Source of the DNA: Candidatus Zambryskiibacteriota bacterium
GTDB taxonomy: Bacteria; Patescibacteriota; Minisyncoccia; Phycocordibacterales; DATDWN01
NCBI GenBank assembly: GCA_003173855.1
Contig: PPGI01000010.1
Span: 1 to 60,303 of the forward strand
Length of the DNA: 60,303 nt
Direction: 5' to 3'
A program made the position numbers and the translations under genes. The notes below the pieces were generated by a model. The model was not told the origin of the DNA and made no database searches. It saw nothing but the letters and a program-made list of their open reading frames with translations. Of this stretch, positions 7,718-20,679 are shown in pieces; within the stretch, counting starts at the first letter, position 1, and each line of letters opens with the position of its first letter.

Positions 7718-8311
7718 ATGACTGATGATTTAAAAGCAAAAATTGCTGAACTAGAGAACCAAGTTCACGAGCTTGAGAAAGATTTAATTCACGACTCACT
7801 TACTGGATTAAAAACTCGTGCTTTTTTTGAAGAAGAAACAAATACCTATCTCGCAACTATTTCAAAGGCAGTAGAAGGTGGACCACGAAAAAATTGGTTT
7901 GGTTTCAGAAATTTAAGCATTTTATTTTTTGATATTGATCATTTTAAAAAAATAAATGATACGTACGGACATGATGTTGGGGATATGGTTTTAAAAAAAG
8001 TTGCAAATAAAATTAATAAAAATGTTAGAGAAGGTGATACTGTTGCAAGATGGGGAGGAGAAGAAATGGTGGCGTCGCTTTTAGGCGCAAATGAGGAGGA
8101 TGCTAAAGATAAAGCTGAAAGAATTAGAAAAAAAATAGAACAGTTAGAGTTTGAAGGAAAGCCTGATTTAAAAGTAACAATAAGCATAGGAATAGCTAAA
8201 AATTTCGAAAATTCTACGGCAAAAGATTTGCTTAAAAATGCTGATCTTGCTTTATATGAAGCCAAGCGAAGTGGTAGAAATAAAGTAGTGGCATTTTCAC
8301 AACTTAAGTAG
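7718..8311 (+). CDS. Diguanylate cyclase (stand-alone GGDEF domain)
   Basis: HDSLTGL, FFDIDHFKKINDTYGHDVGD, RWGGEE active site, REGD I-site, TISIG, AKRSGRN. Confidence 0.92.
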   Translation: MTDDLKAKIAELENQVHELEKDLIHDSLTGLKTRAFFEEETNTYLATISKAVEGGPRKNWFGFRNLSILFFDIDHFKKINDTYGHDVGDMVLKKVANKINKNVREGDTVARWGGEEMVASLLGANEEDAKDKAERIRKKIEQLEFEGKPDLKVTISIGIAKNFENSTAKDLLKNADLALYEAKRSGRNKVVAFSQLK

Positions 8312-9509: not shown

Positions 9510-10439
9510 ATGCTGAAAACTTACAAAATTTTTTTTCTGGTTGCTGTAATCGGCTTTGCTATTTTCTATAGAACAAAATTAGAAAATATTTGGGCTGAAG
9601 CTTACCAGCATTATCTTCCATGTAAAACGCCAATTGCCTATAGCATTGGTACTTTTGATACTCGATTTGGCATATCCAAAGTCGAATTTTTAAGTGCATT
9701 AGCACAAGCTGAATCAATTTGGGAAACTCCAATAAACAAGCAATTATTTAAATATGATCCAAATGGCAATTTAAAAGTAAATTTAATTTATGATAATCGG
9801 CAAAGGGCAACTGATCAATTAAAATCTATGGGACTTGTTGTTAGTGATAACAGAGCATCATATGACGAACTTAAAGCAAAATATGATTCACTTATTCTAG
9901 AGTACAACCAAAAACGTGCAACTTTTCAAGCTGACCTAAGTAATTTTCAACTAGCAAAAACATCTTATGAAAAAGAAGTTCAACAGATAAATGCTCGAGG
10001 TGGAGCAACAAGAGAGGAGTACAACAGACTAAATACTGAAAAAAATGTTTTAAATTCTCGAGTCACTTCGCTCAATTTAGAGCAAGATCAGTTGAATCAA
10101 ATGGTTGACCAAATCAATACTTTGGCTAAAACATTGAATGATTTAGCTTCGACGCTTAATATTAATGTCCAAAAATTTAACACAGTTGGCTCAAGTTTGT
10201 CAGGTGAGTTTGATGAAGGAATTTATAAATCAAGTCCAGATGGCCAGGAGATTGATATTTACCAATTTGAAAACAGAGATAAATTAGTGCGCGTTCTTGC
10301 TCACGAACTTGGACACGCGCTTGGTCTTGAACATGTCGATGATCCAAAAGCGATCATGTACAAATTAAATGTAGGGGAGAATGAAAAATTAACTTCTGCT
10401 GATTTAGGAGAATTAAAAAATCTTTGCGGTATTAAATAA
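9510..10439 (+). CDS. Matrixin-like (M10) zinc metalloprotease with central coiled coil
   Basis: HELGHALGLEH zinc motif plus AIMY Met-turn; N-terminal TM. Confidence 0.88.
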   Translation: MLKTYKIFFLVAVIGFAIFYRTKLENIWAEAYQHYLPCKTPIAYSIGTFDTRFGISKVEFLSALAQAESIWETPINKQLFKYDPNGNLKVNLIYDNRQRATDQLKSMGLVVSDNRASYDELKAKYDSLILEYNQKRATFQADLSNFQLAKTSYEKEVQQINARGGATREEYNRLNTEKNVLNSRVTSLNLEQDQLNQMVDQINTLAKTLNDLASTLNINVQKFNTVGSSLSGEFDEGIYKSSPDGQEIDIYQFENRDKLVRVLAHELGHALGLEHVDDPKAIMYKLNVGENEKLTSADLGELKNLCGIK

Positions 10440-10442
10440 TTT

Positions 10443-11531
10443 ATGAAAAAATTTATTAAAATCTGTTTCTATCTTTTGATCATTCTTTTTGCAGTTACAA
10501 TTTTATCTAAATCATCAATCAAACATAATGTGAATGTAAAGCCATCTCGGGCACTCCATGTTCCAGCTGTTGGAGCGATACGTTGGGATGCGTGGTATTC
10601 AGGAAGTAATTTAAGTAAAACTGAGGAAATCGCTCTGTCGCCAGAGAAATGGCATTATCGTCTGCCTTTTTATGCAGTGATTCCAAAAAAGGGAACTGTT
10701 CAGATTAGATTGGATACACAGGCACAAATGGACTTTGAAATTCGAGCAGCCAAAGCTGGAGGATTAGATTATTGGGCGTTTGGTTATTATGGTGATAATG
10801 ATAAAAATGCTAATGCATTAAAAAAATATTTAAATAGTGCTCATAAAGCTGACATGAGATATGCTCTACTTTTATTTCCACAAGCAATTGGGAAAAGTGG
10901 ATGGCTTGGTCAAGTCGTTGCTCACTTTTCTGATCCACTGTATATGAAGGTTCTAAATGGTCGACCACTTTTATATGTATTTGATGCCGGAGGATCGATT
11001 TCAAAAAATGATTTGGAAAGTGTGAGAAGTGCTGCAAAATCCGCAGGTCTGCCAAACCCATACATTGCTTGGATGACATGGGATGTGCAGGATGGGAAGT
11101 GTGAAAGTCATGACTGCGATGCTATTGCCAATTATGGATTATCACCTACAGGAAATCCCCTGGAAGTTGTGCCGTATCAAAATTTAGCAAATGTGGATCT
11201 TAAATTTTCTCAAGATGCCGAGAATAGAGGCTTAAAAGTTATCCCACCAGTTGGCACTGGTTGGGATCCACGACCTGGGTATGATTATCCGCCGCCATGG
11301 GGAGCAGGTTACAAGACGGCAGTTACAAATGGGACACCTCAGGAGATTGCAGAAAATTTAAATACTGCTATACATTGGGCAAACAGCAATGGATCTGCTG
11401 AATCAAAAGTAATTCTCATATATGCATGGAATGAATTTGAGGAAGGAGGATGGCTAACACCGATGCTACAAGGTGGAGCAGAGAGACTCACTGCGATAAG
11501 CTCTGTTATGAGCACGCTTCCTAAAAAATAA
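10443..11531 (+). CDS. Secreted GH99/GH71-like glycoside hydrolase
   Basis: VGAIRWDAW, LDYWAF, GRPLLYVF, GWDPRP, IYAWNEFEEGGW motifs; N-terminal signal/TM. Confidence 0.7.
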   Translation: MKKFIKICFYLLIILFAVTILSKSSIKHNVNVKPSRALHVPAVGAIRWDAWYSGSNLSKTEEIALSPEKWHYRLPFYAVIPKKGTVQIRLDTQAQMDFEIRAAKAGGLDYWAFGYYGDNDKNANALKKYLNSAHKADMRYALLLFPQAIGKSGWLGQVVAHFSDPLYMKVLNGRPLLYVFDAGGSISKNDLESVRSAAKSAGLPNPYIAWMTWDVQDGKCESHDCDAIANYGLSPTGNPLEVVPYQNLANVDLKFSQDAENRGLKVIPPVGTGWDPRPGYDYPPPWGAGYKTAVTNGTPQEIAENLNTAIHWANSNGSAESKVILIYAWNEFEEGGWLTPMLQGGAERLTAISSVMSTLPKK

Positions 11532-11541
11532 AATTAATATT

Positions 11542-11615
11542 GCGGAATTAGTTAAATGGTAGAACGGCCGCTTCCCAAGCGGCAAATACGAGTTCGATTC
11601 TCGTATTCCGCACCA
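11542..11615 (+). tRNA. tRNA-Gly (CCC)
   Basis: GCGGAAT/ATTCCGC acceptor, GCCGC-TT-CCC-AA-GCGGC anticodon arm, ACGAG-TTCGATT-CTCGT T arm, encoded CCA. Confidence 0.95.
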
Positions 11616-11679: not shown

Positions 11680-13038
11680 ATGCCGTCTTACTCAAAAATT
11701 GCCTTATTTTCAGCCATTTTATTGGTATTTTTTACTTCGTCAGCTTATGCTCAAGTTGTTTCTTCAACTCCTCCAACAGTTTCAATCGGAGTAGGAAATG
11801 GCAATACTCCAGCAAATACTGGTCCTCAACATGGCTCAATTTTTCATGGAAACATTCCTGTTTATGCAACTGTAAACGATCCAGATAACGATTTAGAAAA
11901 TTATCACTTTCGAGTTGTGAAAGATGGTGGCAGTTTAGGTTTTACTTGCACAGTTCCAGACGGATTATTTTTGCCTGAAAATCAAGGTTATGCATCATCA
12001 ACTCTTGGAAAAGATGCTTGCGGATATGTTTACAATCAGTCAATTTATACTGGAACCAATTTTACAAACTCAATTATTACTACTTTAAACACAATTGATC
12101 TTGGCGCTTATTCTGGTGATGGAAATTATTGGCTAATTCTTGGTGCTCGAGATACTACAGGAAACCGTACAAATCCTGACTATTTGACTGATTCACAAGT
12201 AGAAATCACTGTTGATAATACAGCTCCCATGACAACAAGTTCAATAGGAAACAGGAGAGATTCTGACTTATTTACAATTTTCGGAACGTCAACTGATACA
12301 AATGGTGTGGCAAACACAACTGTTTCATATGCAAATTTTGATGGAACAAATTGCGGAACTTTTTCACAAGCAGGAATTTTAAATGGGGGAAATACGGCAG
12401 TCTTTCCTTGGACATTCGAATTTAATCCAAATACCGACGGAAATTATTGTCTTTCTGTTTCTAGTACTGATCTCGTAGGAAACAAAGAAACTGATAATAC
12501 AATTGAAACTAATATTCCGTTTCTTTCTTCAACAACTCCAACGCCAACACCTACGCCATCACCAAGTCCAAGTCCAGCACCGTCTCCGTCCCCAACTCCA
12601 GCACCAAATTCAGCTCCTGTAGGAGGAAATGGCCCAATTGTTGGCACATTTGGGAAAATTAATGGTCAAGGATCAAATGACGGACAAGTTCTTGGTGAAT
12701 CAACAACAACACTCCCATCGGGCTGTGTACCTGTACTAACTTCTTACCTAATCAGCGGCGGCAAGAATAATAAAGAAGATGTAAAAACACTCCAGAATTT
12801 TTTGAATAAATATTTTGGAACAAATATTCCAGTAAACGGAATTTTTGGTCCGCAAACTCTTGCCGCAGTTTATAAATTCCAGGCAAAAGAAAGTGAAGAA
12901 GTCTTAATGCCTTGGGTCAGAGCTGGATTGTGGAAGAGCGCAAACCCAACTGGTTACGTTTACAAAACTACATCACGACGAATAAATATGCTGAGCTGCA
13001 TTGGTGAAATAAATATCCCAATGCCGCAGCTTCCTTAA
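11680..13038 (+). CDS. Secreted beta-rich (Ig-like) protein with Pro-Thr/Ser linker and C-terminal peptidoglycan-binding-like domain
   Basis: Signal peptide ending AYA, ITVDNTAP Ig-type motif, TPTPTPTPSPSPSP, DVKTLQNFLN..VNGIFGPQTLAAVYKFQ. Confidence 0.75.
   Translation: MPSYSKIALFSAILLVFFTSSAYAQVVSSTPPTVSIGVGNGNTPANTGPQHGSIFHGNIPVYATVNDPDNDLENYHFRVVKDGGSLGFTCTVPDGLFLPENQGYASSTLGKDACGYVYNQSIYTGTNFTNSIITTLNTIDLGAYSGDGNYWLILGARDTTGNRTNPDYLTDSQVEITVDNTAPMTTSSIGNRRDSDLFTIFGTSTDTNGVANTTVSYANFDGTNCGTFSQAGILNGGNTAVFPWTFEFNPNTDGNYCLSVSSTDLVGNKETDNTIETNIPFLSSTTPTPTPTPSPSPSPAPSPSPTPAPNSAPVGGNGPIVGTFGKINGQGSNDGQVLGESTTTLPSGCVPVLTSYLISGGKNNKEDVKTLQNFLNKYFGTNIPVNGIFGPQTLAAVYKFQAKESEEVLMPWVRAGLWKSANPTGYVYKTTSRRINMLSCIGEINIPMPQLP
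12537..12606 (+). repeat. Pro-Thr/Pro-Ser coding repeat
   Basis: cca/ccg + aca/act/agt codon repeats. Confidence 0.85.
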
Positions 13039-13042
13039 TGAG

Positions 13043-13063
13043 AATCGCCTCCGGGCGATTTTT
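13043..13063 (+). terminator. Intrinsic terminator-like hairpin
   Basis: AATCGCC-TCCG-GGCGATT plus T run right after the stop at 13038. Confidence 0.65.
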
Positions 13064-13079
13064 CATTTATAATAAAATT

Positions 13080-14033
13080 ATGGATTTTTTAAAGAAGTGG
13101 TTTGTACCTGGTCAAAAAAATGGCTATAAACCGCATTTATTTTCTGAAACCGGAATAGGTGTTCTTTTTTCTTTGATTATTTTTGTTTTTTTGATAGCTA
13201 GTTTAGGTAATTTTATTATTAGCAGAACTGGTCTAACGGCTTTAGTTTTACCGAATGTTTTAGTTGATGAAGCAAATAGTGATCGACAAGCTCTGCAATA
13301 TAGAGAACTAACAATAAATCCAATACTAGTTCGAGCAGCGCAATTGAAAGCCAATGATATGGCAACTAAAGGTTATTTTGCCCATCAAAGTCCTGATGGA
13401 CATTCGCCATGGTACTGGTTTAGCGAAGCAGGGTATGATTTTAGTTATGCTGGAGAAAACTTGGCAGTAAATTTTACTGATTCAAGTGATGTAAATGCTG
13501 CATGGATGAATTCGCCATCTCACAGAGCAAATATATTAAATAGTAATTTTACTGAAATTGGCATTGCCACTGCAGAAGGAATTTATAACGGAAAAGCCAC
13601 AACATTTGTGGTCGAAATGTTTGGCAGGCCAGCGTTTGAAAATTTGGCTACAAATATAGCTTTAAATGCAGAAACTAAGACAAAAATCGCTACTACAACC
13701 AAAATTGTTCGAACATCGAGTGTTCTTGGTGCTAGTGAGGAAAACGATCTTTATATTGCTGTAAAAAAGGAGAGTGCTGCCACAACTTTTGCCGAAAATA
13801 CAAATTATTCTAATTGGATTGGACGATTGTTCTCTTCTCCAAAAAGAATAATGAGCTTTATTTATATTGTTCTTGCTGTGCTAATTACTATCGGATTAAT
13901 CCTTATGATTGTGATTGAAATAAAAAAACAACATCCAATTTATATTATGTTTGGTCTAGGACTTCTCTTTTTAATGCTTGTTCTTACGTATCTTTATCAA
14001 AATTTATTGTTTGGACCACTTCTCATCGTTTAA
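13080..14033 (+). CDS. CAP/SCP-domain membrane protein
   Basis: AAQLKANDMA..GYFAH.SPDG, YAGENLA, AWMNSPSHRANIL, EIGIA; TM helices at both ends; start moved to MDFLKKW. Confidence 0.9.
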   Translation: MDFLKKWFVPGQKNGYKPHLFSETGIGVLFSLIIFVFLIASLGNFIISRTGLTALVLPNVLVDEANSDRQALQYRELTINPILVRAAQLKANDMATKGYFAHQSPDGHSPWYWFSEAGYDFSYAGENLAVNFTDSSDVNAAWMNSPSHRANILNSNFTEIGIATAEGIYNGKATTFVVEMFGRPAFENLATNIALNAETKTKIATTTKIVRTSSVLGASEENDLYIAVKKESAATTFAENTNYSNWIGRLFSSPKRIMSFIYIVLAVLITIGLILMIVIEIKKQHPIYIMFGLGLLFLMLVLTYLYQNLLFGPLLIV

Positions 14034-14121
14034 GGCAAGGTAAGTTCGTCAAACTTCATCACGTCTTCATTTACAGCCAGGTGGAATTTAACATAACTTT
14101 CTGCTAAGGTAACAAAATACG

Positions 14122-15180
14122 ATGGAAATAAAAAAGATTGTGAAGCCGAAATTCATTATTTTAAGCCTTTTATTTACACTTATTATCCCGTTTTTCCCAT
14201 TTCCTAATATATCAGGGCTGTGGGCTACAGAGGCTAAAACAAAGCAACATGGCAGGTGGGCAACTGACTCTACACCATCTCCAGATCCAAGTCCTAGCCC
14301 AGTGCCAACACCAAGTCCAAGTCCAGCACCAAGCCCAACTCCAACTCCGACGCCTACACCGACACCAGTTACAAGCCCTACGCCAACTCCAGTAGCAGGA
14401 ACAATACAATGGGGAGCTTATGCTGGAGAAACTGTTAGTGAAATACAAAATTTTGAAACTCTTATGGGCAAACAAACAGAAATTGTAAGTGTCTTTTATG
14501 CATTCACTGATGATTTTCCAACAACTTATCAATCAGCAATTGGCGCAAAAGGGAAAACACTTTTAATTTTTTGGGAGCCAACAACCAATCTTGATCAAAT
14601 AAATAATGGAAACCAAGATGCTTATTTACGTGCTTTTGCCGCTGGAGCCAAAGCTTATGGTTATCCAATAATTCTTGCGCCATTCCATGAAGTTAACGGC
14701 AATTGGGATGTTTGGGATGGAACAGTAAGCAATAACTCTCCAGCCAAGTTTCTAACTGCTTGGAAGCACGTTCATGACCTTTTCATTGGTGTAAATAACG
14801 TTAAATTTGCTTTATCTTATAATGCTGGTTCGGTTCCAGATGTTGTCGGAAATCAAATGAGCGATTACTATCCTGGAGATAATTACGTTGATTATCTTGG
14901 ACTTGATGGCTTCAATTTTGGTTCTCCTTGGCAATCATTTGATGCTATTTTTGCCGTTCCAATAATTGAATTAGAAAGTTACCACAAACCAATTTATATT
15001 TTCTCAATGGCTTCAACTGCTGGAGCGGGGAAGGCTGCATGGATTAGTGATTTTGGATCTGAAGTTTATAAATTCCCAATTTCAGGCTGGGTTTGGTTTA
15101 ATCAAAATGGAACTGATGGAAATTGGCTCGTAAACTCTGATTCAGCTTCATTAACTGCATTCAAGCAAATTTTGCCTTAG
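14122..15180 (+). CDS. GH26-like (beta-mannanase/endoglucanase H family) protein with Pro-Thr linker
   Basis: LLIFWEP, FHEVNGNW, YYPGDNYVDYLGLDGFN, KPIYIF, GWVWFN. Confidence 0.8.
   Translation: MEIKKIVKPKFIILSLLFTLIIPFFPFPNISGLWATEAKTKQHGRWATDSTPSPDPSPSPVPTPSPSPAPSPTPTPTPTPTPVTSPTPTPVAGTIQWGAYAGETVSEIQNFETLMGKQTEIVSVFYAFTDDFPTTYQSAIGAKGKTLLIFWEPTTNLDQINNGNQDAYLRAFAAGAKAYGYPIILAPFHEVNGNWDVWDGTVSNNSPAKFLTAWKHVHDLFIGVNNVKFALSYNAGSVPDVVGNQMSDYYPGDNYVDYLGLDGFNFGSPWQSFDAIFAVPIIELESYHKPIYIFSMASTAGAGKAAWISDFGSEVYKFPISGWVWFNQNGTDGNWLVNSDSASLTAFKQILP
14272..14392 (+). repeat. Pro-Thr/Pro-Ser coding repeat
   Basis: TPSPDPSPSPVPTPSPSPAPSPTPTPTPTPTP. Confidence 0.85.
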
Positions 15181-15330
15181 TCAAGTAGACAAATCAAAAA
15201 AAATAACTAGTATCGGTTAAGAATTTTCTTTTACATAAGCCTCGTTGCAAATTAGTTGCAGCAGGCTTGCTTTTTTTAAGAAAATGTGTTTATATTAGCC
15301 GGTCAAATTGGGGCTATAAACATATACAAT

Positions 15331-16341
15331 ATGCGAATTTCAATAGTCATTCCATGTCATAACGAAGAGAAGTCGATTGCTAAATGTATCGATTCTTGTC
15401 TTGCGCAGACCAGAAAAGCTGATCAGATTTTAGTTATTAACGATGGAAGCACAGATAATTCTCGAAAAATTTTGGAAACTTACAAAAAAGATATTGAAGT
15501 TTTAACAATTCCAGTAGCAACAGGTAATAAAAGCCGTGCTCAAGAAAAAGGTCTCTCTTATGTAACAGGTGATATTTTTATTGCAACTGACGGAGATACT
15601 TTGCTTGATAAAAATTTTGTAAAACGAATCGAAGAAGATTTTAAAGATCCAAAAGTCATTGCCGTTGGAGGATATGTTAAAAGTCTTCGCTACAATTGGC
15701 TGACTGCATGCCGCGCTCTCGATTATACAGTTGGACAAAATATCGATAAGCTTGCCCAAGACTATGTAAATTACATGCTTGTTATTCCTGGCGCAGCAGG
15801 AGCATTTCGAACTAACATTTTTAAAAAGCTTGGTTTTGACCACGACACCCTAACAGAAGATTTGGATTTTACTTATAAACTCCATAAACTAGGCCATAAA
15901 ATTAAATATGATAGGGAAGCCATTTGCTATACTCAGGATCCTGCAGATTTTTCATCTTATGTAAATCAAATGCGAAGATGGTTTGGTGGCGGTTGGCAAT
16001 GTTTTATGAAGCATGCCAGTGTTCCATCTCGACCGGGCATGGCACTTGAACTCTCGCTAATTTACGGAGAAGGCTTGGTTTTCTCTCTTTTAATTTTCCT
16101 TCTTCCGTTTATAAATATCTTTTTTGCTCTGACATTGCTATTTTCAAATCTTGTTATTGTTCTTGCACTTGCAATCTTTGCCGGCGCTAAAGAAAAGCGA
16201 TGGGATTTTCTCTTAATTCTTCCACAATACTTATTTTTAAAATATGTAAACGCTTGGATTTATCTTGAACAATTCACAAAAGAAGTTGTTTTAAAAAGAA
16301 AAAATATGGCCTGGTTTCATCCAGACAGAGTAAGAATATAA
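15331..16341 (+). CDS. Processive GT2 polysaccharide synthase (IcaA/PgaC/NodC-like)
   Basis: IVIPCHNEE, INDGSTD, TDGDT (DxD), PGAAGAFR, TEDLD, QMRRW; C-terminal TM helices; start moved to MRISIV. Confidence 0.9.
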   Translation: MRISIVIPCHNEEKSIAKCIDSCLAQTRKADQILVINDGSTDNSRKILETYKKDIEVLTIPVATGNKSRAQEKGLSYVTGDIFIATDGDTLLDKNFVKRIEEDFKDPKVIAVGGYVKSLRYNWLTACRALDYTVGQNIDKLAQDYVNYMLVIPGAAGAFRTNIFKKLGFDHDTLTEDLDFTYKLHKLGHKIKYDREAICYTQDPADFSSYVNQMRRWFGGGWQCFMKHASVPSRPGMALELSLIYGEGLVFSLLIFLLPFINIFFALTLLFSNLVIVLALAIFAGAKEKRWDFLLILPQYLFLKYVNAWIYLEQFTKEVVLKRKNMAWFHPDRVRI

Positions 16342-16345
16342 ATTT

Positions 16346-16447
16346 ATGCCAACAGTACCATTTGTAGGACTATCGATGATCATAAACCTCGTAATCGTAA
16401 CGAGCGTTAAATTAGGCCGTAAAATGTTCGAAATTTTGAGCGAATAA
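16346..16447 (+). CDS. 33-aa single-TM peptide (not in ORF track)
   Basis: MPTVPFVGLSMIINLVIVTSVKLGRKMFEILSE; begins 4 nt after the GT2 stop and ends 1 nt before the next ATG. Confidence 0.65.
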   Translation: MPTVPFVGLSMIINLVIVTSVKLGRKMFEILSE

Positions 16448-16448
16448 T

Positions 16449-16814
16449 ATGAAATTTATCTCAGTCACAATTGTTATAGCAGTCTTTACGATGGTTCTTA
16501 TGGGATCGTATTTAATCCTAATTCAGAGTTTTCGAAGTGATACTTCAAATTACAGAATCGTAAAAGAAATCATTTCAAAACAATTTGATATTGTCAGAGC
16601 CGACAGCTTAAAAGAAAAATTAACTTGCTTAACAACTTCACAAAATTATTCGATTGTCGATTTTATGAAAGCAAATAATATTGATAGTTCTTTTGAAGCC
16701 AGAGCTGTCTTAGCAAAAAAAATTAATATAAATGATTACGATGGTACTCCGGATGAAAATTCTAAGCTAATTAAATATTTAATTAGTCAAAAATGCCAAG
16801 AAACAGTTACATAA
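16449..16814 (+). CDS. Membrane-anchored protein with DUF3597-like cell-wall-binding module
   Basis: N-terminal TM; SIVDFMKANNIDSSFEARAVLAKKININDYDGTPDENSKL resembles the SIVD..DSSF..R..LA module of Firmicute endolysins. Confidence 0.6.
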   Translation: MKFISVTIVIAVFTMVLMGSYLILIQSFRSDTSNYRIVKEIISKQFDIVRADSLKEKLTCLTTSQNYSIVDFMKANNIDSSFEARAVLAKKININDYDGTPDENSKLIKYLISQKCQETVT

Positions 16815-16888
16815 TGTTTTTTGCTTGCATTATATAAAGGGTTATGGCAAGGTTTAAAAAATTTAATACAGAATTAATAGAAAAGAAT

Positions 16889-19312
16889 ATGAAAACGAAA
16901 ATTACAAAAAAAATGATGAAAAGAAAGGATTTGATAGATGTCCACTTTTTAATAAGCTCGGCATTGTTTAGTGTTTTAGTTGTATTTTCCACTGTTGTCT
17001 TACAGCCTCTTTCACTTAAAGCCGAAGATGTAAATTTAATTCCTAACGCAGATTTTCTAAATCAAACGATCCCTGGTATTCCAGATAATTGGTTTCAAGG
17101 CGGTTACGGAGTAAGCACTTCAACATTTGCATTTCCGGTTATAGGTTCAACAGGAGCTCCCACTGATAACGCAGTAAACGTTACAATCACAAATTATCAA
17201 AGTGGTGACGCGAAGTGGTACTTTTCTCCAGTTCCCGTAACAGCAGGACGAACTTACGTTTTTTCAGATTCATATAAATCAGATACGCAATCACAAATAA
17301 TTGCAGAGTATTTTGATACAAACTTAGTTCCACTATCACCAACAGATCCGGGAACAAGAGGGTGGTTTGGAGTAGTCCCAGCATCAACCGAATGGGCAAC
17401 AACGACAAACAGCTTTACACCTCCAGCCGGTGCAGCTTACATGACTGTTTTCCATTCTCTACAAGGCAATGGCTCGCTTACAACAGATGACTCTAAGCTT
17501 ATATTGCTTCCGCCTCCACCGCAGTTTGCTAATGGGGTAGTGACACTTACATTCGATGATGGTTGGGAATCACAATATATAAATGCTTTTCCAGCACTAA
17601 AAAACGCGGGATACAAAGGATCATTCTATTTAATTTCAAGCACACTAATTCCTGGTGCAGAAGTTGATCCAAATATTCTTTGCCAAAACGTTCAATCTTA
17701 TTGTGATCAAGGCGTAATTTCTGAAACCCCAAGCTCTTGGATGGCAGCCGGACAATATCCAGATCCAAACACTGACACTTACACATTTGCTGACACATTT
17801 GATGCAAGTGCAACAAGCACAATTACAGTTAGTTACTTTGATCAAAATAATAATCCAATAGATGGCGAGCAAAATATTGTCCTTCAAACTCTTGAGTCGG
17901 GAACAGGACAAAATGTTTCAGTGAAATTTACAATTCCTCCAGCAGTTTTTGCCCTAACCAGTACATCATCTCCAGTAGGCCCATCATTTGCTATTGTTCA
18001 TTTCGTTCCAGATGGAGAGACTATTCATGTAACAAGTCCAAAGGTAACAAAAAAACAAAGCGGAGCTGACACCTACATGGTTCCGTCGCAAATTCTTGAT
18101 ATGCAGGCAAATGGCATGGAAATCGGGGCTCACACAGTAGATCACTGCAACCTTGCACTTCTTGATCAAGATAACAGCTCATCTTTAACAGGAGCATGTG
18201 CTTCAAATCTTTTAGTTCCAGTAACACCTGAATACGAAATCAATACTTCTCGATCAACAATACAGTCGTTTGGAGCAACACCTGTTGATACATTTGTTTA
18301 TCCATACGGAGGATTTAATGCTCATGTTGAGTCATTAATAAACCAAGCAGGATTTATTTCTTCGCGAACAGTAAATGTCGGATTCAATACAAAAAATTCT
18401 GATTTGTACGCTCTTAACACACAGTTAGTTGATAAGCCGCTTACTGATAATCCAACTGGTTTAAATACAGTTGAGTCTTGGATTGATACAGCCCTAAACA
18501 ATAAATCATGGCTCATTCTTACATTCCACAATGTTCAAACTCCAGAACAAATGGCTGCTAATCAATCAGCTCGACCAGGAAGTGTTGATGAATCAACGAC
18601 CTCGGTATTCTTTCAAGCGGTTGTTGATTATTTAAAGGCACATAATGTTTGTGTAGCAACAATGCATGATGCAACCAATGCTCTTAAATCTGATCAAGAT
18701 CCATGTAATTCCCAAACAAATACACCGCCTCCAACACCGACACCTACACCTACACCTACTCCAACTCCTACGCCCACTCCAACTCCAACACCAACTCCTG
18801 ATCCAACTCCAACACCAACACCAGCACCATCAGGAGGTGGCGGAGGAGGTGGAGGTGGTGGTCCAACAATATATGAAATTATTGCAAGATCAGCTTCGTC
18901 GACATCTTCATCATCAACTGGCCAAGTTTTGGGAGAAAGCACAAGTTCTCCATTAACAGGCATGGATCTTCTAAATGCACTTAAAGTAAAACTTGCTTCT
19001 CTATATAAGCAGCTAGTTACACTTCAATTCAAAGCTTCTGGTTGTTCATATGTCTGGACTACAGATCTATCATTTGGCTCGTATTCATCTGATGTAAATA
19101 GTCTTCAAACAACATTAAACTCAAGTTCTCTGACTGAAGTTGGGAACAAAGGATTTGAAACATCATTCTTTGGACTTTCAACAAAAGCGGCAGTTATTAA
19201 ATTCCAAAATATTTTCCTTGAGGAAACTATGAAACCATTGGGATTAACTTCTGGAAATGGAATTGTTGGATCTACAACACGCGCAGTCTTGAATACCATT
19301 TGTTCCAAATAG
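16889..19312 (+). CDS. Secreted CE4/NodB polysaccharide deacetylase with CBM-like domains, Pro-Thr linker and peptidoglycan-binding-like C-terminus
   Basis: LTFDDG, EIGAHTVDH, FVYPYG, LILTFH CE4 motifs; NLIPNADF..W CBM4/9-like N-terminus; FFGLSTKAAVIKFQ..GNGIVGSTTR. Confidence 0.85.
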   Translation: MKTKITKKMMKRKDLIDVHFLISSALFSVLVVFSTVVLQPLSLKAEDVNLIPNADFLNQTIPGIPDNWFQGGYGVSTSTFAFPVIGSTGAPTDNAVNVTITNYQSGDAKWYFSPVPVTAGRTYVFSDSYKSDTQSQIIAEYFDTNLVPLSPTDPGTRGWFGVVPASTEWATTTNSFTPPAGAAYMTVFHSLQGNGSLTTDDSKLILLPPPPQFANGVVTLTFDDGWESQYINAFPALKNAGYKGSFYLISSTLIPGAEVDPNILCQNVQSYCDQGVISETPSSWMAAGQYPDPNTDTYTFADTFDASATSTITVSYFDQNNNPIDGEQNIVLQTLESGTGQNVSVKFTIPPAVFALTSTSSPVGPSFAIVHFVPDGETIHVTSPKVTKKQSGADTYMVPSQILDMQANGMEIGAHTVDHCNLALLDQDNSSSLTGACASNLLVPVTPEYEINTSRSTIQSFGATPVDTFVYPYGGFNAHVESLINQAGFISSRTVNVGFNTKNSDLYALNTQLVDKPLTDNPTGLNTVESWIDTALNNKSWLILTFHNVQTPEQMAANQSARPGSVDESTTSVFFQAVVDYLKAHNVCVATMHDATNALKSDQDPCNSQTNTPPPTPTPTPTPTPTPTPTPTPTPTPDPTPTPTPAPSGGGGGGGGGGPTIYEIIARSASSTSSSSTGQVLGESTSSPLTGMDLLNALKVKLASLYKQLVTLQFKASGCSYVWTTDLSFGSYSSDVNSLQTTLNSSSLTEVGNKGFETSFFGLSTKAAVIKFQNIFLEETMKPLGLTSGNGIVGSTTRAVLNTICSK
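18721..18857 (+). repeat. Pro-Thr repeat followed by poly-Gly
   Basis: (PT)n then SGGGGGGGGGG. Confidence 0.9.
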
Positions 19313-19337
19313 ATTCTAAGTTTGTGGAAATTTTAAC

Positions 19338-19362
19338 AAAAGTCAGCTTAAGGCTGGCTTTT
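19338..19362 (+). terminator. Bidirectional terminator-like hairpin
   Basis: AAAAGTCAGC-TTAAG-GCTGGCTTTT. Confidence 0.6.
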
Positions 19363-19381
19363 GTGTTATCTTTAGTTTGTC

Positions 19382-19468
19382 GGAGAGGTGGCTGAGTGGT
19401 TTAAAGCACTGGTTTCGAAAACCAGCATTCCTTAATTGGAATCGCGAGTTCGAATCTCGCCCTCTCCG
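19382..19468 (+). tRNA. tRNA-Ser (CGA)
   Basis: GGAGAGG/CCTCTCC acceptor, CTGGT-TT-CGA-AA-ACCAG anticodon arm, long variable arm, GCGAG-TTCGAAT-CTCGC T arm. Confidence 0.95.
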
Positions 19469-19618
19469 CAGTGAACGTAGTGAAAACTGCGAAGAGGCGG
19501 ACTAGCTTTCGAAGAAAGCGTAAGTCGATTCGAAACCCGATTGAGATATTTTGGAGCTTGCGAGAAAATATCCAATTGGGGTACTGAAACTGTAAGTTTC
19601 GAATCTCGCCCTCTCCGC
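19449..19618 (+). repeat. tRNA 3'-end direct duplication (21 bp) bracketing a ~130-bp palindromic insert
   Basis: ttcgaatctcgccctctccgc at 19449-19469 and 19598-19618. Confidence 0.9.
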
Positions 19619-19901: not shown

Positions 19902-19989
19902 AAACTTAGTTCTTTTAAAATCCATTGATTAATTTCAATGGATTTTAAAATTTATGGACAGAAAAGTTTTTTTAATAGATAATGGCCGA

Positions 19990-20679
19990 ATGAAAAATAT
20001 TTTTTTGAGCATTATTGTGGTCGCGATTGTGATTGTTGGAGGATACTATTTGTTTCGAGACAAAAAACCACCAGTTGATAATTCTGGGCTACTTTCAAAT
20101 GTAAATTCGTATGGAACGACAACGGAATCGACTCAAACACTTCAAGCGACAACAACAAACCAAACTACAACAACACCATCAACACCATCTCCAACAATTA
20201 ACAATAAAAAATCACATATGATAACAATCAAAACAAATTACGGAACAATAGTTTTTGAAACATATGATAATGACGCGCCAAATACCTCTGCAAACTTCGT
20301 AAAGCTTGCAACAAAAGGATTCTACGATAACCTTACATTTCACAGAGTAATCAAGGGTTTTATGATCCAAGGAGGGGATCCAAATGGAAATGGAACAGGT
20401 GGGCCAGGGTATCAATTTGCAGATGAGTTAAATCCAAATACTCCATCTTACAAAGCAGGTTATAAAAAAGGCGTTGTGGCGATGGCTAATGCTGGTCCAA
20501 ACACAAATGGTAGTCAATTTTTCATAATGACTGCAGATTATCCTCTTCCAAATCAGTACACAATTTTTGGTCATGTAGTTTCTGGTCAAGATGTAGTTGA
20601 TAAAATCGCAAATGTTCCAACTGGCCAAAATGACAAGCCAATTTCTCCTGTTAAGATGGAAAAAGTGACAGTAAATTAA
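19990..20679 (+). CDS. Cyclophilin-type peptidyl-prolyl isomerase, membrane anchored
   Basis: FHRVIKGFMIQGGDP, GTGGPGY.FADE, AMANAGPNTNGSQFFI; Thr-rich linker. Confidence 0.95.
   Translation: MKNIFLSIIVVAIVIVGGYYLFRDKKPPVDNSGLLSNVNSYGTTTESTQTLQATTTNQTTTTPSTPSPTINNKKSHMITIKTNYGTIVFETYDNDAPNTSANFVKLATKGFYDNLTFHRVIKGFMIQGGDPNGNGTGGPGYQFADELNPNTPSYKAGYKKGVVAMANAGPNTNGSQFFIMTADYPLPNQYTIFGHVVSGQDVVDKIANVPTGQNDKPISPVKMEKVTVN

Follow-up and report, generated by a model that had tools for sequence, protein, structure and literature searches.

A conserved gene cluster of Patescibacteria that may encode a split, synthase-dependent surface-polysaccharide system

The genomes of Patescibacteria are very small and encode few biosynthetic pathways, and little is known of the ways in which these bacteria form their surfaces and attach to hosts. 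Does the locus described here encode a surface polymer of such a bacterium, and, if so, which of its genes take part? The locus is located in a stretch of DNA of 60,303 nucleotides (hereafter "the window"; contig PPGI01000010.1, positions 1-60,303 of the forward strand, assembly GCA_003173855.1, Candidatus Zambryskiibacteriota bacterium). Between the genes for tRNA-Gly(CCC) and tRNA-Ser(CGA) are seven open reading frames (ORFs; g1 to g7 in Table 1), all on the + strand, exactly as an initial annotation of the window had listed them. That annotation viewed the run as a system resembling the ica and pga loci, in which a family 2 glycosyltransferase (GT2), a small membrane partner, and a family 4 carbohydrate esterase (CE4) are combined. 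Its domain calls scored above the respective cut-offs for the peptidoglycan (PG)-binding domain PG_binding_1 (PF01471) in g1, CAP in g2, glycoside hydrolase family 26 (GH26) in g3, GT2 in g4, DUF3597 in g6, and CE4 in g7; the calls for the immunoglobulin (Ig)-like part of g1 and for the carbohydrate-binding module (CBM) and PG-binding domain of g7 fell below them. On the evidence presented below, a probability of about 0.6 was assigned to the reading that g3 to g7 constitute a split, synthase-dependent surface-polysaccharide system of the PgaC/IcaA/MatB type, the product of which would be a partly de-N-acetylated polymer of the N-acetylglucosamine (GlcNAc) type.

A five-gene unit conserved across Patescibacteria

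Gene neighborhoods were surveyed around 80 GT2 loci from species-representative Patescibacteria genomes. Many of these loci are shortened by contig ends; a fully flanked set comprised the 32 loci with at least 9 kb on either side of the GT2 gene. The matching regions on two contigs of a single metagenome-assembled genome (MAG; JBDTWD01), loci L049 and L053, count as two in the locus statistics. Co-occurrence in other genomes had been set beforehand as the test of the proposed system, and it was found for the genes of the GT2, the small transmembrane (TM) peptide, the CBM-CE4 protein, and the GH26-like protein. GT2 sequences from many Patescibacteria MAGs share 55-75% identity. Homologs of the g7 protein were present in 66 of the 80 loci and GH26 in 49; in the fully flanked set, a CE4 or DUF2334 deacetylase was present in 29/32 loci, and a GH26-like gene was located within 10 kb of the GT2 in 28/32. 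As an internal control, the neighboring ORFs were clustered all-against-all; apart from the families of the cluster and the small partner, no family was common to more than 12 loci. In 50 of 52 loci, the CE4 gene shares the strand of the GT2 and lies downstream of it. The GH26 gene is found in two arrangements: upstream on the same strand, as in the window (15 loci), or downstream on the opposite strand, i.e. convergent (30 loci).

The two genes at the start of the run do not share this conservation, although the initial annotation had counted both as members. The CAP gene occurs in one or two of the 80 loci. The Ig part of g1 has a homolog in one (L034), and 13 further matches to g1 are confined to its PG-binding domain. 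On the contig of the closest relative, GH26 (with PG_binding), GT2, a 129-aa ORF, and CE4 (with HYR) were found, with no CAP or Ig gene. In the window, both genes are set apart by hairpins, and on co-occurrence and these hairpins they were excluded from the cluster. The conserved unit is the five ORFs g3 to g7; g1 and g2 are mere neighbors.

The seven-gene run does not have the structure of a single operon. RNA folding and reading of the sequence revealed hairpins with U-rich tracts after g1, g3, and g7 (Table 1). Because these hairpins and tracts end the three genes, the likely transcription units are g1 alone, g2-g3, and a third consisting of the GT2, peptide, DUF3597, and CE4 genes. In particular, the hairpin in the GH26-GT2 gap suggests that the GT2 opens its own unit.

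No gene for a PgaA outer-membrane porin or an acyltransferase-like protein of the IcaC type was detected between 9.5 and 21.8 kb of the window, and no such family recurred in the 80 loci. The initial annotation, too, had seen no exporter at this locus. This result fits translocation by the synthase itself. A gene for the N-terminal uridyltransferase domain of GlmU alone (UDP-GlcNAc diphosphorylase, ca. 260 aa, 195 bits to GlmU models) is positioned directly upstream of the GT2 in L005, L049/L053, and L070, an adjacency that lends minor support to UDP-GlcNAc as the putative substrate. Such genes were also seen, farther from the GT2, in L021 and L077; no copy was found in the 60-kb window. The GT2, GlmU-N, and following TM-helix regions of L049 and L053 are identical, which represents either a duplicated region or an assembly duplicate. 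In 9-12 loci (among them L006, L016, L017, L018, L020, L029, L039, L047, and L055), a class F sortase gene (NCBIfam, 182.9 bits, above the cut-off) precedes the GT2 on its strand by ca. 0.8 kb; there is none in the window.

The putative synthase, its membrane partner, and the two surface proteins

The mechanical ORF of the GT2 opens upstream of its most likely real start, which is the ATG at 15331 (MRISIV, 336 aa) that matches the homologs. The protein has a GT-A domain with the motifs of the polymerizing GT2 synthases (the class of BcsA, hyaluronan synthase (HAS), chitin synthase, NodC, and PgaC), namely D, DxD, (T)ED, and Q(Q/R)xRW. They are found as NDGS (15433-15450), DGDT (15583-15600), TEDLDFT (15853-15873), and QMRRW (15967-15981), along with PGAAGAFR (15787-15810). 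In an alignment of 20 GT2 homologs (58-75% identity), D, DxD, TED, and QxxRW were invariant. The AlphaFold2 (AF2) model (mean predicted local distance difference test, pLDDT, 88.6) features the GT-A domain, an interface helix bearing QxxRW, and three long C-terminal helices, with no N-terminal TM segment. Its top structural matches were the hyaluronan synthases XlHAS1 and CvHAS (TM-scores relative to the query, TMq, 0.75-0.78), followed by BcsA and chitin synthases. By sequence, the TED/QxxRW half was aligned to BcsA (E 2e-5). In its motif set and in the fold of the model, the GT2 resembles the membrane-embedded, polymerizing synthases. Filing it with the archaeal mannosyltransferase PcManGT was considered and retained as a rival only: the sequence similarity is limited to the GT-A part (query residues 13-219).

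Of the curated families in NCBIfam, PgaC_IcaA (TIGR03937) was the best match to the GT2, at 122.8 bits vs. 65.7 for NodC and 32 for CelA. The alignment covers profile positions 46-371 of 407; therefore, a terminal segment is missing at each end. A GT2 profile was also searched against 1.84 billion representative sequences. Among the relatives next in rank (190-210 bits) are fusions of CE4 to GT2 and triple fusions of GH18, CE4, and GT2, of which one (MDP4179927.1) comes from a Bacillota MAG; the best curated family of these proteins is likewise PgaC_IcaA. The triad of hydrolase, deacetylase, and synthase, which is a gene cluster here, is therefore a single polypeptide in distant relatives, in which GH18 occupies the place of the hydrolase. 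Longer GT2 homologs (P0119, P0026, P0369, and others) were inspected as candidates for natural fusions of the GT2 to its partner and were rejected; their extra tails are not the partner's helix.

The 33-aa ORF g5 is the conserved helix VPFVGLSMIINLVIV, termed TM1. A hidden Markov model (HMM) of TM1 built from other genomes located the helix directly after the GT2 stop codon in ca. 65 of the 80 loci and almost nowhere else; the window's peptide, which was absent from the building of the HMM, matched it at E 4.8e-6. The consensus is P-F-x-G(98%)-L/I-S/T(99%)-x3-H(88%)/N(11%), followed by basic residues. H and N together account for 99%, and the window has N. In most loci, the ORF that opens with TM1 begins within a few bases of the GT2 stop, often overlapping it. 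The remainder of these ORFs is variable. As a rule, TM1 leads into a basic loop, a second TM segment, and a short tail (90-250 aa in total), but it is also found at the start of 28-50-aa peptides, of DUF2334 and CBM-CE4 proteins, and of proteins that exceed 2000 aa.

The next ORF, g6, contributes the second TM segment (TM2) and a domain (IDSSFEARAVLA...YDGTPDEN at 16680-16760) that matches only the C-terminal part of DUF3597 (PF12200; Pfam, 30.4 bits vs. a cut-off of 29.8), with a weak match to PDB entry 2gqb. This DUF3597-C-like domain is present on the partner in 19 of the 80 loci. It is fused to TM1 in ca. 10 of them, and in ca. 9 the partner is split into a free TM1 peptide of 28-50 aa and a TM2-DUF3597C protein. 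The sequences thus indicate that g5 and g6 together correspond to one 2-TM partner, which most genomes encode as a single protein and which is split here, rather than to the two separate components that the initial annotation had made of them. That the 33-aa ORF is a chance occurrence or the remnant of a frameshift was ruled out by the recurrence of this split and of further free TM1 peptides elsewhere. Comparison of g5, g6, and five full-length partners to Pfam and NCBIfam gave the weak DUF3597 match as the single hit, with none to PgaD or IcaD. Based on the positive-inside rule, the partner would have its short N-terminus outside, its loop in the cytoplasm, and its C-terminal domain outside.

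In several genomes, TM1 is itself part of the deacetylase. A TM1-CBM-CE4 fusion was found in L041. In L016, L017, and L052, the TM1 protein exceeds 2000 aa and carries six copies of the CBM ahead of a terminal CE4 domain; its counterparts in L020 and L055 have five CBM repeats. In addition, TM1-TM2-DUF2334/CE4-like fusions comprise a seven-locus family, whose members in L066 and L078 were read over their whole length. Through fusions of this kind, the helix found next to the GT2 is linked to an extracellular deacetylase. Together with the conserved neighborhood and the CE4-GT2 fusion relatives, the TM1 fusions uphold the original view of the GT2, a small membrane partner, and the CE4 enzyme as a linked unit with a build unlike that of ica and pga. 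Surface proteins of ca. 1850-2450 aa adjoin the GT2 in L016 (11057-18151), L017, L020, L052, L055, L010, L021, L022, and L025. The tandem repeats in the first five are copies of one and the same CBM; in the latter four, the opening region was judged by eye to resemble a beta-propeller or a sugar dehydrogenase.

The CE4 domain of g7 (Polysacc_deac_1; Pfam, 63.4 bits) is recognized in two stretches that are split by an insertion of ca. 130 aa. Its motifs TFDDG, HTVDH, YPYG, and LTFH are all present, and they are conserved in homologs; because of this, the enzyme is probably active. The top curated matches of the domain were HfsH and PgaB, both far under their cut-offs (PgaB, 33.2 bits vs. 321.9; IcaB reached 12.7 vs. 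248). The CBM and PG-binding domain that had been assigned to g7 gained support from further tests, their low Pfam scores notwithstanding. For the N-terminal module, CBM_4_9 (PF02018) reached just 18.4 bits vs. a cut-off of 25.9, but many homologs carry PF02018, and an AF2 model of residues 56-612 (pLDDT 86.9) was matched by Foldseek to CBM4-2, CBM16, and CBM22 (TM-scores relative to the target, TMt, 0.61-0.68). The C-terminus scored 19.5 bits for PG_binding_1, under the cut-off; it is homologous to the domain of g1 (pairwise E 9e-7). In many g7 homologs, a second CBM is inserted between the first two CE4 motifs; in the relatives nearest to the window, this insert bears the annotation HYR. The initial annotation had proposed a glycan that is tethered to the wall via three wall-binding modules. 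This was an over-reading: the modules sit on enzymes (the CE4 protein and, in relatives, the GH26-like one), not on the glycan.

The GH26-like protein, g3, scored 39.3 bits for GH26 vs. a Pfam cut-off of 20.2. Its closest solved relative is the Clostridium thermocellum lichenase Lic26A, to which residues 96-350, the whole barrel, were aligned (E 5e-40). We take the catalytic residues of Lic26A to be Glu109 (acid/base) and Glu222 (nucleophile), and this numbering agrees with the alignment. The acid/base is retained in g3 as E190 (FHEVNG, 14683-14700). At the position of the nucleophile, there is a serine, S295 (IFSMAS, 14998-15015). The (beta/alpha)8 barrel is thus that of GH26, whereas the pair of catalytic glutamates (acid/base on strand 4, nucleophile on strand 7) is incomplete. 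The same is true of the family. Among 54 cluster-linked homologs, Glu109 is kept in all, and position 222, which is located within the well-aligned motif K-P-I-x-I-x-S, is Ser in 53 and Ala in one. Of 120 further homologs from the database, the position could be read in 91, with Ser in 88, Ala in two, Pro in one, and Glu in none. Three other changes with respect to Lic26A (T165N, H170Y, and H257N) are invariant in the family. That the whole family has lost the nucleophile while retaining the remainder of the site speaks against a classical retaining GH26 enzyme. Enzymes of families GH18 and GH20 use the 2-acetamido group of the substrate itself as the nucleophile; by analogy, the loss in g3 would fit substrate-assisted catalysis on a 2-acetamido sugar, and it is notable that GH18 is the hydrolase of the fused relatives.

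Layout of the locus and neighboring genes

The coordinates of the features are collected in Table 1. The hairpin 3' of g1 overlaps the mechanical start of the CAP ORF; for this reason, the true start of g2 is probably the ATG at 13080 (MDFLKKW), past the hairpin.

Table 1. Positions of the genes, modules, and terminator-like hairpins of the locus in the window
Feature	Position	Strand	Remarks
tRNA-Gly(CCC)	11542-11615		
g1, Ig/PG-binding neighbor	11680-13038	+	Secreted; weak Big_13 repeats, Pro-Thr linker, PG_binding_1
Terminator-like hairpin 3' of g1	13037-13067	+	RNA folding
g2, CAP/YkwD-family neighbor	13038-14033	+	TM segments; Pfam CAP, NCBIfam YkwD
g3, secreted GH26-like protein	14122-15180	+	N-terminal signal/TM, Pro/Ser/Thr linker (ca. 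14275-14394), catalytic-type barrel
Terminator-like hairpin and U-run, GH26-GT2 gap	15236-15284	+	-17.4 kcal/mol, z -3.8, 0/200 shuffles as stable
g4, membrane GT2 synthase	15331-16341	+	336 aa; mechanical ORF opens at GTG 15286
g5, TM1 peptide	16346-16447	+	33 aa, hydrophobic; begins 4 nt past the GT2 stop
g6, TM2 and DUF3597-C-like protein	16449-16814	+	121 aa; N-terminal TM, extracellular domain
g7, CBM-CE4 surface deacetylase	16844-19312	+	822 aa; signal anchor first; Pfam CE4 in two stretches
g7, CBM4/9-like module	ca. 17009-17527	+	
g7, CE4 part 1, TFDDGW	17549-17566	+	
g7, beta-rich insertion	ca. 17654-18013	+	
g7, CE4 part 2, HTVDH	18131-18145	+	
g7, CE4 part 2, YPYG	18299-18310	+	
g7, CE4 part 2, LTFH	18518-18529	+	
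g7, Pro-Thr/Gly linker	ca. 18680-18913	+	
g7, PG_binding_1-like C-terminus	ca. 18914-19309	+	
Terminator-like hairpin 3' of g7, before tRNA-Ser	19336-19364	+	-17.5 kcal/mol, z -5.6
tRNA-Ser(CGA)	19382-19469		

Of the two excluded neighbors, g1 scored 31.9 bits for PG_binding_1 (Pfam cut-off 23) and 20-22 bits for the Ig-like Big_13, under the cut-off of 27; a search of PDB sequences with g1 returned no useful match. For g2, the scores were 61.6 bits for CAP (Pfam) and 106 bits for YkwD (NCBIfam). Long Pro-Thr/Pro-Ser linkers were noted at 12535-12576 (g1), 14275-14394 (g3), and 18725-18860 (g7), and g7 also has a run of nine Gly. These low-complexity linkers gave rise to spurious matches to internalin, TonB, and similar models.

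Just upstream of tRNA-Gly, two secreted proteins are encoded at 9510-10439 and 10443-11531 (+). One is a zinc protease of the M10/matrixin-like type with a long coiled coil, and the other is WbsX-like (PF14307). In L034, the closest genome locus, a homolog of the protease (54% identity) is encoded 6.5 kb upstream of the GT2; neither protein recurred in other loci. Just past tRNA-Ser (19954-20679, +) is the gene for a prolyl isomerase of the cyclophilin type. To judge from its N-terminal TM segment and Thr-rich linker, the protein is probably extracellular; no such gene was found near the GT2 in any of the 80 loci. A stand-alone GGDEF diguanylate cyclase (7718-8311, +; 197 aa, N-terminal coiled coil, active-site motif GGEEM) is located ca. 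7 kb upstream of the GT2. Elsewhere, PgaCD and BcsA are under the control of cyclic di-GMP. A GGDEF gene was nearby in only one of the 80 loci (L044), and a cyclic di-GMP link as a part of the system was dropped. No riboswitch or other Rfam match was obtained.

The proposed system, its rivals, and its known relatives

In the favored reading, the GT2 would polymerize a beta-linked, GlcNAc-containing glycan from UDP-GlcNAc at the cytoplasmic face of the membrane and thread the chain outward. The partner (N-out TM1, basic cytoplasmic loop, TM2 with its extracellular domain) would pack on the three C-terminal helices of the GT2, substituting for TM helices that PgaC/IcaA and the hyaluronan synthases have and the GT2 lacks, and would hold extracellular modules at the exit. 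The wall-anchored CBM-CE4 protein would partly de-N-acetylate the chain as it emerges, and the GH26-like protein would trim or release the polymer, possibly with the 2-acetamido group of the substrate as its nucleophile. An outer-membrane porin would not be needed in this envelope. Such a polymer may serve as a sheath, in aggregation, or in attachment to a host, the last being the role that the initial annotation had thought possible.

A more detailed version was also formulated. In it, the GT2 and its partner form a minimal glycan-synthase complex, i.e. a 3-helix GT2 completed in trans by a conserved 25-residue TM helix (P-F-x-G-L-S-x3-H) that also anchors the deacetylase or other extracellular modules at the channel exit; the GH26-like protein represents the first GH26 subfamily in which the enzymic nucleophile was abandoned and a GlcNAc polymer, partly deacetylated, is cleaved by substrate-assisted catalysis instead; and the polymer is a main surface layer or an attachment matrix of these epibionts. 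Taken as a whole, this version is speculative, and we regard it as doubtful. If it were true, the 3-helix GT2 with its trans TM helix would be a previously undescribed minimal glycan-synthase complex of Patescibacteria.

Several observations count against a PNAG-like (poly-N-acetylglucosamine) assignment. None of the proteins attained the threshold of the PgaC/IcaA, PgaB/IcaB, or PgaD/IcaD families (PgaC_IcaA, 122.8 vs. 422.3 bits; PgaB, 33.2 vs. 321.9; IcaB, 12.7 vs. 248; no match to PgaD or IcaD). The product sugar and its linkage cannot be read from the sequence. The nearest characterized GH26 enzyme is a beta-1,3-1,4-glucanase, not a GlcNAc-ase, and the Ser substitution could equally mean that the protein is an inactive binding protein. 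GlmU adjacency is confined to a few loci, and GlmU is a housekeeping enzyme as well. The GT2 has only three C-terminal helices, its model is also fitted by PcManGT, a size-matched archaeal mannosyltransferase that is not a channel (TMt 0.67-0.68), and contact between partner and GT2 was deduced from adjacency and fusions only.

Three other readings were considered. The product might not be based on GlcNAc: the GT2 could make a beta-glucan (e.g. mixed-linkage) or a mannan, with the GH26-like protein as its cognate glucanase- or mannanase-type partner and the CE4 protein as an O-deacetylase or an enzyme with another substrate. The match to the lichenase Lic26A (E 5e-40), the resemblance of the CBM to the xylan-, glucan-, and mannan-binding CBM4, CBM16, and CBM22, and the best sequence alignment of the TED/QxxRW half, which is to the cellulose synthase BcsA, all point in this direction, and CE4 does include acetylxylan esterases. 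However, the nucleophile that a lichenase or mannanase requires is gone in 53 of 54 copies, the nearest curated family of the GT2 is PgaC/IcaA (122.8 bits) rather than CelA (32), and the best curated matches of the CE4 domain are HfsH and PgaB. Moreover, the fused relatives pair the GT2 with GH18 and CE4, both of which are typical of GlcNAc polymers, and a GlmU-N gene adjoins the GT2 in some loci. We consider a non-GlcNAc product unlikely.

It is similarly improbable, in our judgment, that the GT2 is a non-processive enzyme with a minimal cellulose-synthase-like fold that glycosylates a lipid carrier, a glycolipid, or a wall polymer, such that the CE4, CBM, and GH26 proteins remodel peptidoglycan or another wall glycan fed by it. 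The three C-terminal helices with no N-terminal TM segment would suit such an enzyme, as would the whole-length structural match to PcManGT (a 345-aa membrane mannosyltransferase, TMt 0.67-0.68), the PG_binding_1 domains on g7 and GH26 relatives, and the frequent action of CE4 enzymes on peptidoglycan. On the other hand, sequence alignment to PcManGT is restricted to GT-A, TED and QxxRW align to BcsA, the hyaluronan synthases are the top structural matches, the relatives are PgaC-like fusion proteins, and a lipid glycosyltransferase would hardly account for a conserved TM partner by which a deacetylase is anchored at the GT2. Finally, the secreted CBM-CE4 and GH26-like proteins might act on foreign glycans (host wall, chitin, or environmental polymers) for attack or feeding, with a linkage to the GT2 that is regulatory or historical. 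Patescibacteria are thought to be host-dependent, some loci encode proteins that exceed 2000 aa and have five or six CBM repeats, and the window has a metalloprotease and other secreted proteins nearby. This explanation is very unlikely given the strict gene order, the distance of no more than a few bases between the GT2 stop and the TM1 start, the use of TM1 as the membrane anchor of the deacetylase in several genomes, and the fusion of the triad in other bacteria with GH and CE4 outside and GT2 inside; the GH26-like protein also lacks the nucleophile expected of a digestive GH26.

The locus is of interest in several respects. A GT2 that is 55-75% identical across many lineages and locked to the same partners is a concrete candidate for the synthase of a Patescibacteria surface polymer. 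Two leads in enzymology arise from it: one is a TM micro-subunit, in some cases no more than a free 30-aa peptide, with a possible dual function in completing a synthase and tethering its modifying enzyme, and the other is an entire GH26 subfamily that has Ser in the place of the catalytic nucleophile.

The cluster resembles known systems in parts. The best folds for the GT2 model are those of CvHAS, XlHAS1, and BcsA, which have TED and QxxRW in common with it, but the sequence identity is 16-18%, and much of these longer enzymes is unmatched by the model (TMt 0.52-0.57 for HAS, ca. 0.3 for BcsA). The unmatched parts include further TM helices. Unlike in BcsA, there is no PilZ domain, gating-loop homology, or BcsB-like partner here. 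Lic26A, the GH26 domain of CelH, is aligned across the barrel and shares Glu109 and many residues of the active-site strands; it differs in Glu222, which is almost always Ser in the Patescibacteria family, and in H170Y, T165N, and H257N. To judge from these changes, the GH26-like protein probably either has a substrate different from that of Lic26A or is not a classical retaining hydrolase. In the rhizobial NodC/NodB pair, a small GT2 with few TM segments and QxxRW likewise adjoins a CE4 enzyme that acts on its GlcNAc product. Yet the NodC score is 65.7 bits vs. 122.8 for PgaC, NodB is cytoplasmic, and Nod has no TM partner, CBM, or hydrolase. The CE4-GT2 and GH18-CE4-GT2 fusions (MDP4179927.1; P0415, P0437, P0438, P0453, and P0476), which are uncharacterized, contain the same triad of GH, CE4, and GT2 but are single polypeptides, and their hydrolase is GH18 rather than GH26-like.

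Streptomyces MatB, the characterized representative of this type of architecture, has an extracellular CE4 domain, one TM helix, and an intracellular GT2 domain and makes PNAG (PMC5972031). As in the present cluster, the system is of the monoderm type, a TM helix holds CE4 at the synthase, the GT domain is nearest to PgaC, and there is an unannotated partner, small or unknown (MatA). In contrast, neither the window nor any of the 80 loci has CE4 and GT2 joined in one gene, and in the cluster the TM partner is encoded after the GT2 and ahead of the CE4 protein; the tether is the TM1 helix, which from one genome to another is a free peptide, a part of the partner, or a part of the deacetylase; and a GH26-like gene belongs to the cluster.

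PgaABCD of Escherichia coli and IcaADBC of Staphylococcus share with the cluster a membrane GT2 with D, DxD, TED, and QxxRW, an adjoining small 2-TM partner, and a CE4 enzyme outside the membrane. In Pga, glycoside hydrolase activity is also tied to the deacetylase, in the C-terminal domain of PgaB (PMC5933820). The differences are that the Patescibacteria GT2 is without the terminal segment at either end of the PgaC/IcaA profile; that the partner has no sequence similarity to PgaD/IcaD, is predicted to be N-out/C-out, and carries extracellular domains; that in place of a GH153 domain there is a GH26-like hydrolase with a gene of its own; that there is neither a PgaA porin nor an IcaC; that the CE4 protein carries CBM and PG-binding modules; and that synthase, subunit, and deacetylase all fail the family cut-offs. 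No description of the cluster in Patescibacteria (candidate phyla radiation) was found in the literature; "pgaC" in papers on Patescibacteria referred to other bacteria or was part of a DOI string. A 2020 survey of synthase-dependent operons does not mention these phyla, and it found the hydrolase domain only in Gram-negative pga operons (PMC7112194), a picture that a monoderm-type cluster with its own hydrolase would widen. Most likely, then, the cluster is a differently built relative of the PNAG biofilm systems, with a shortened synthase, an unrelated partner that can be a free 30-aa peptide, a modular deacetylase, and a GH26-like hydrolase without the nucleophile.

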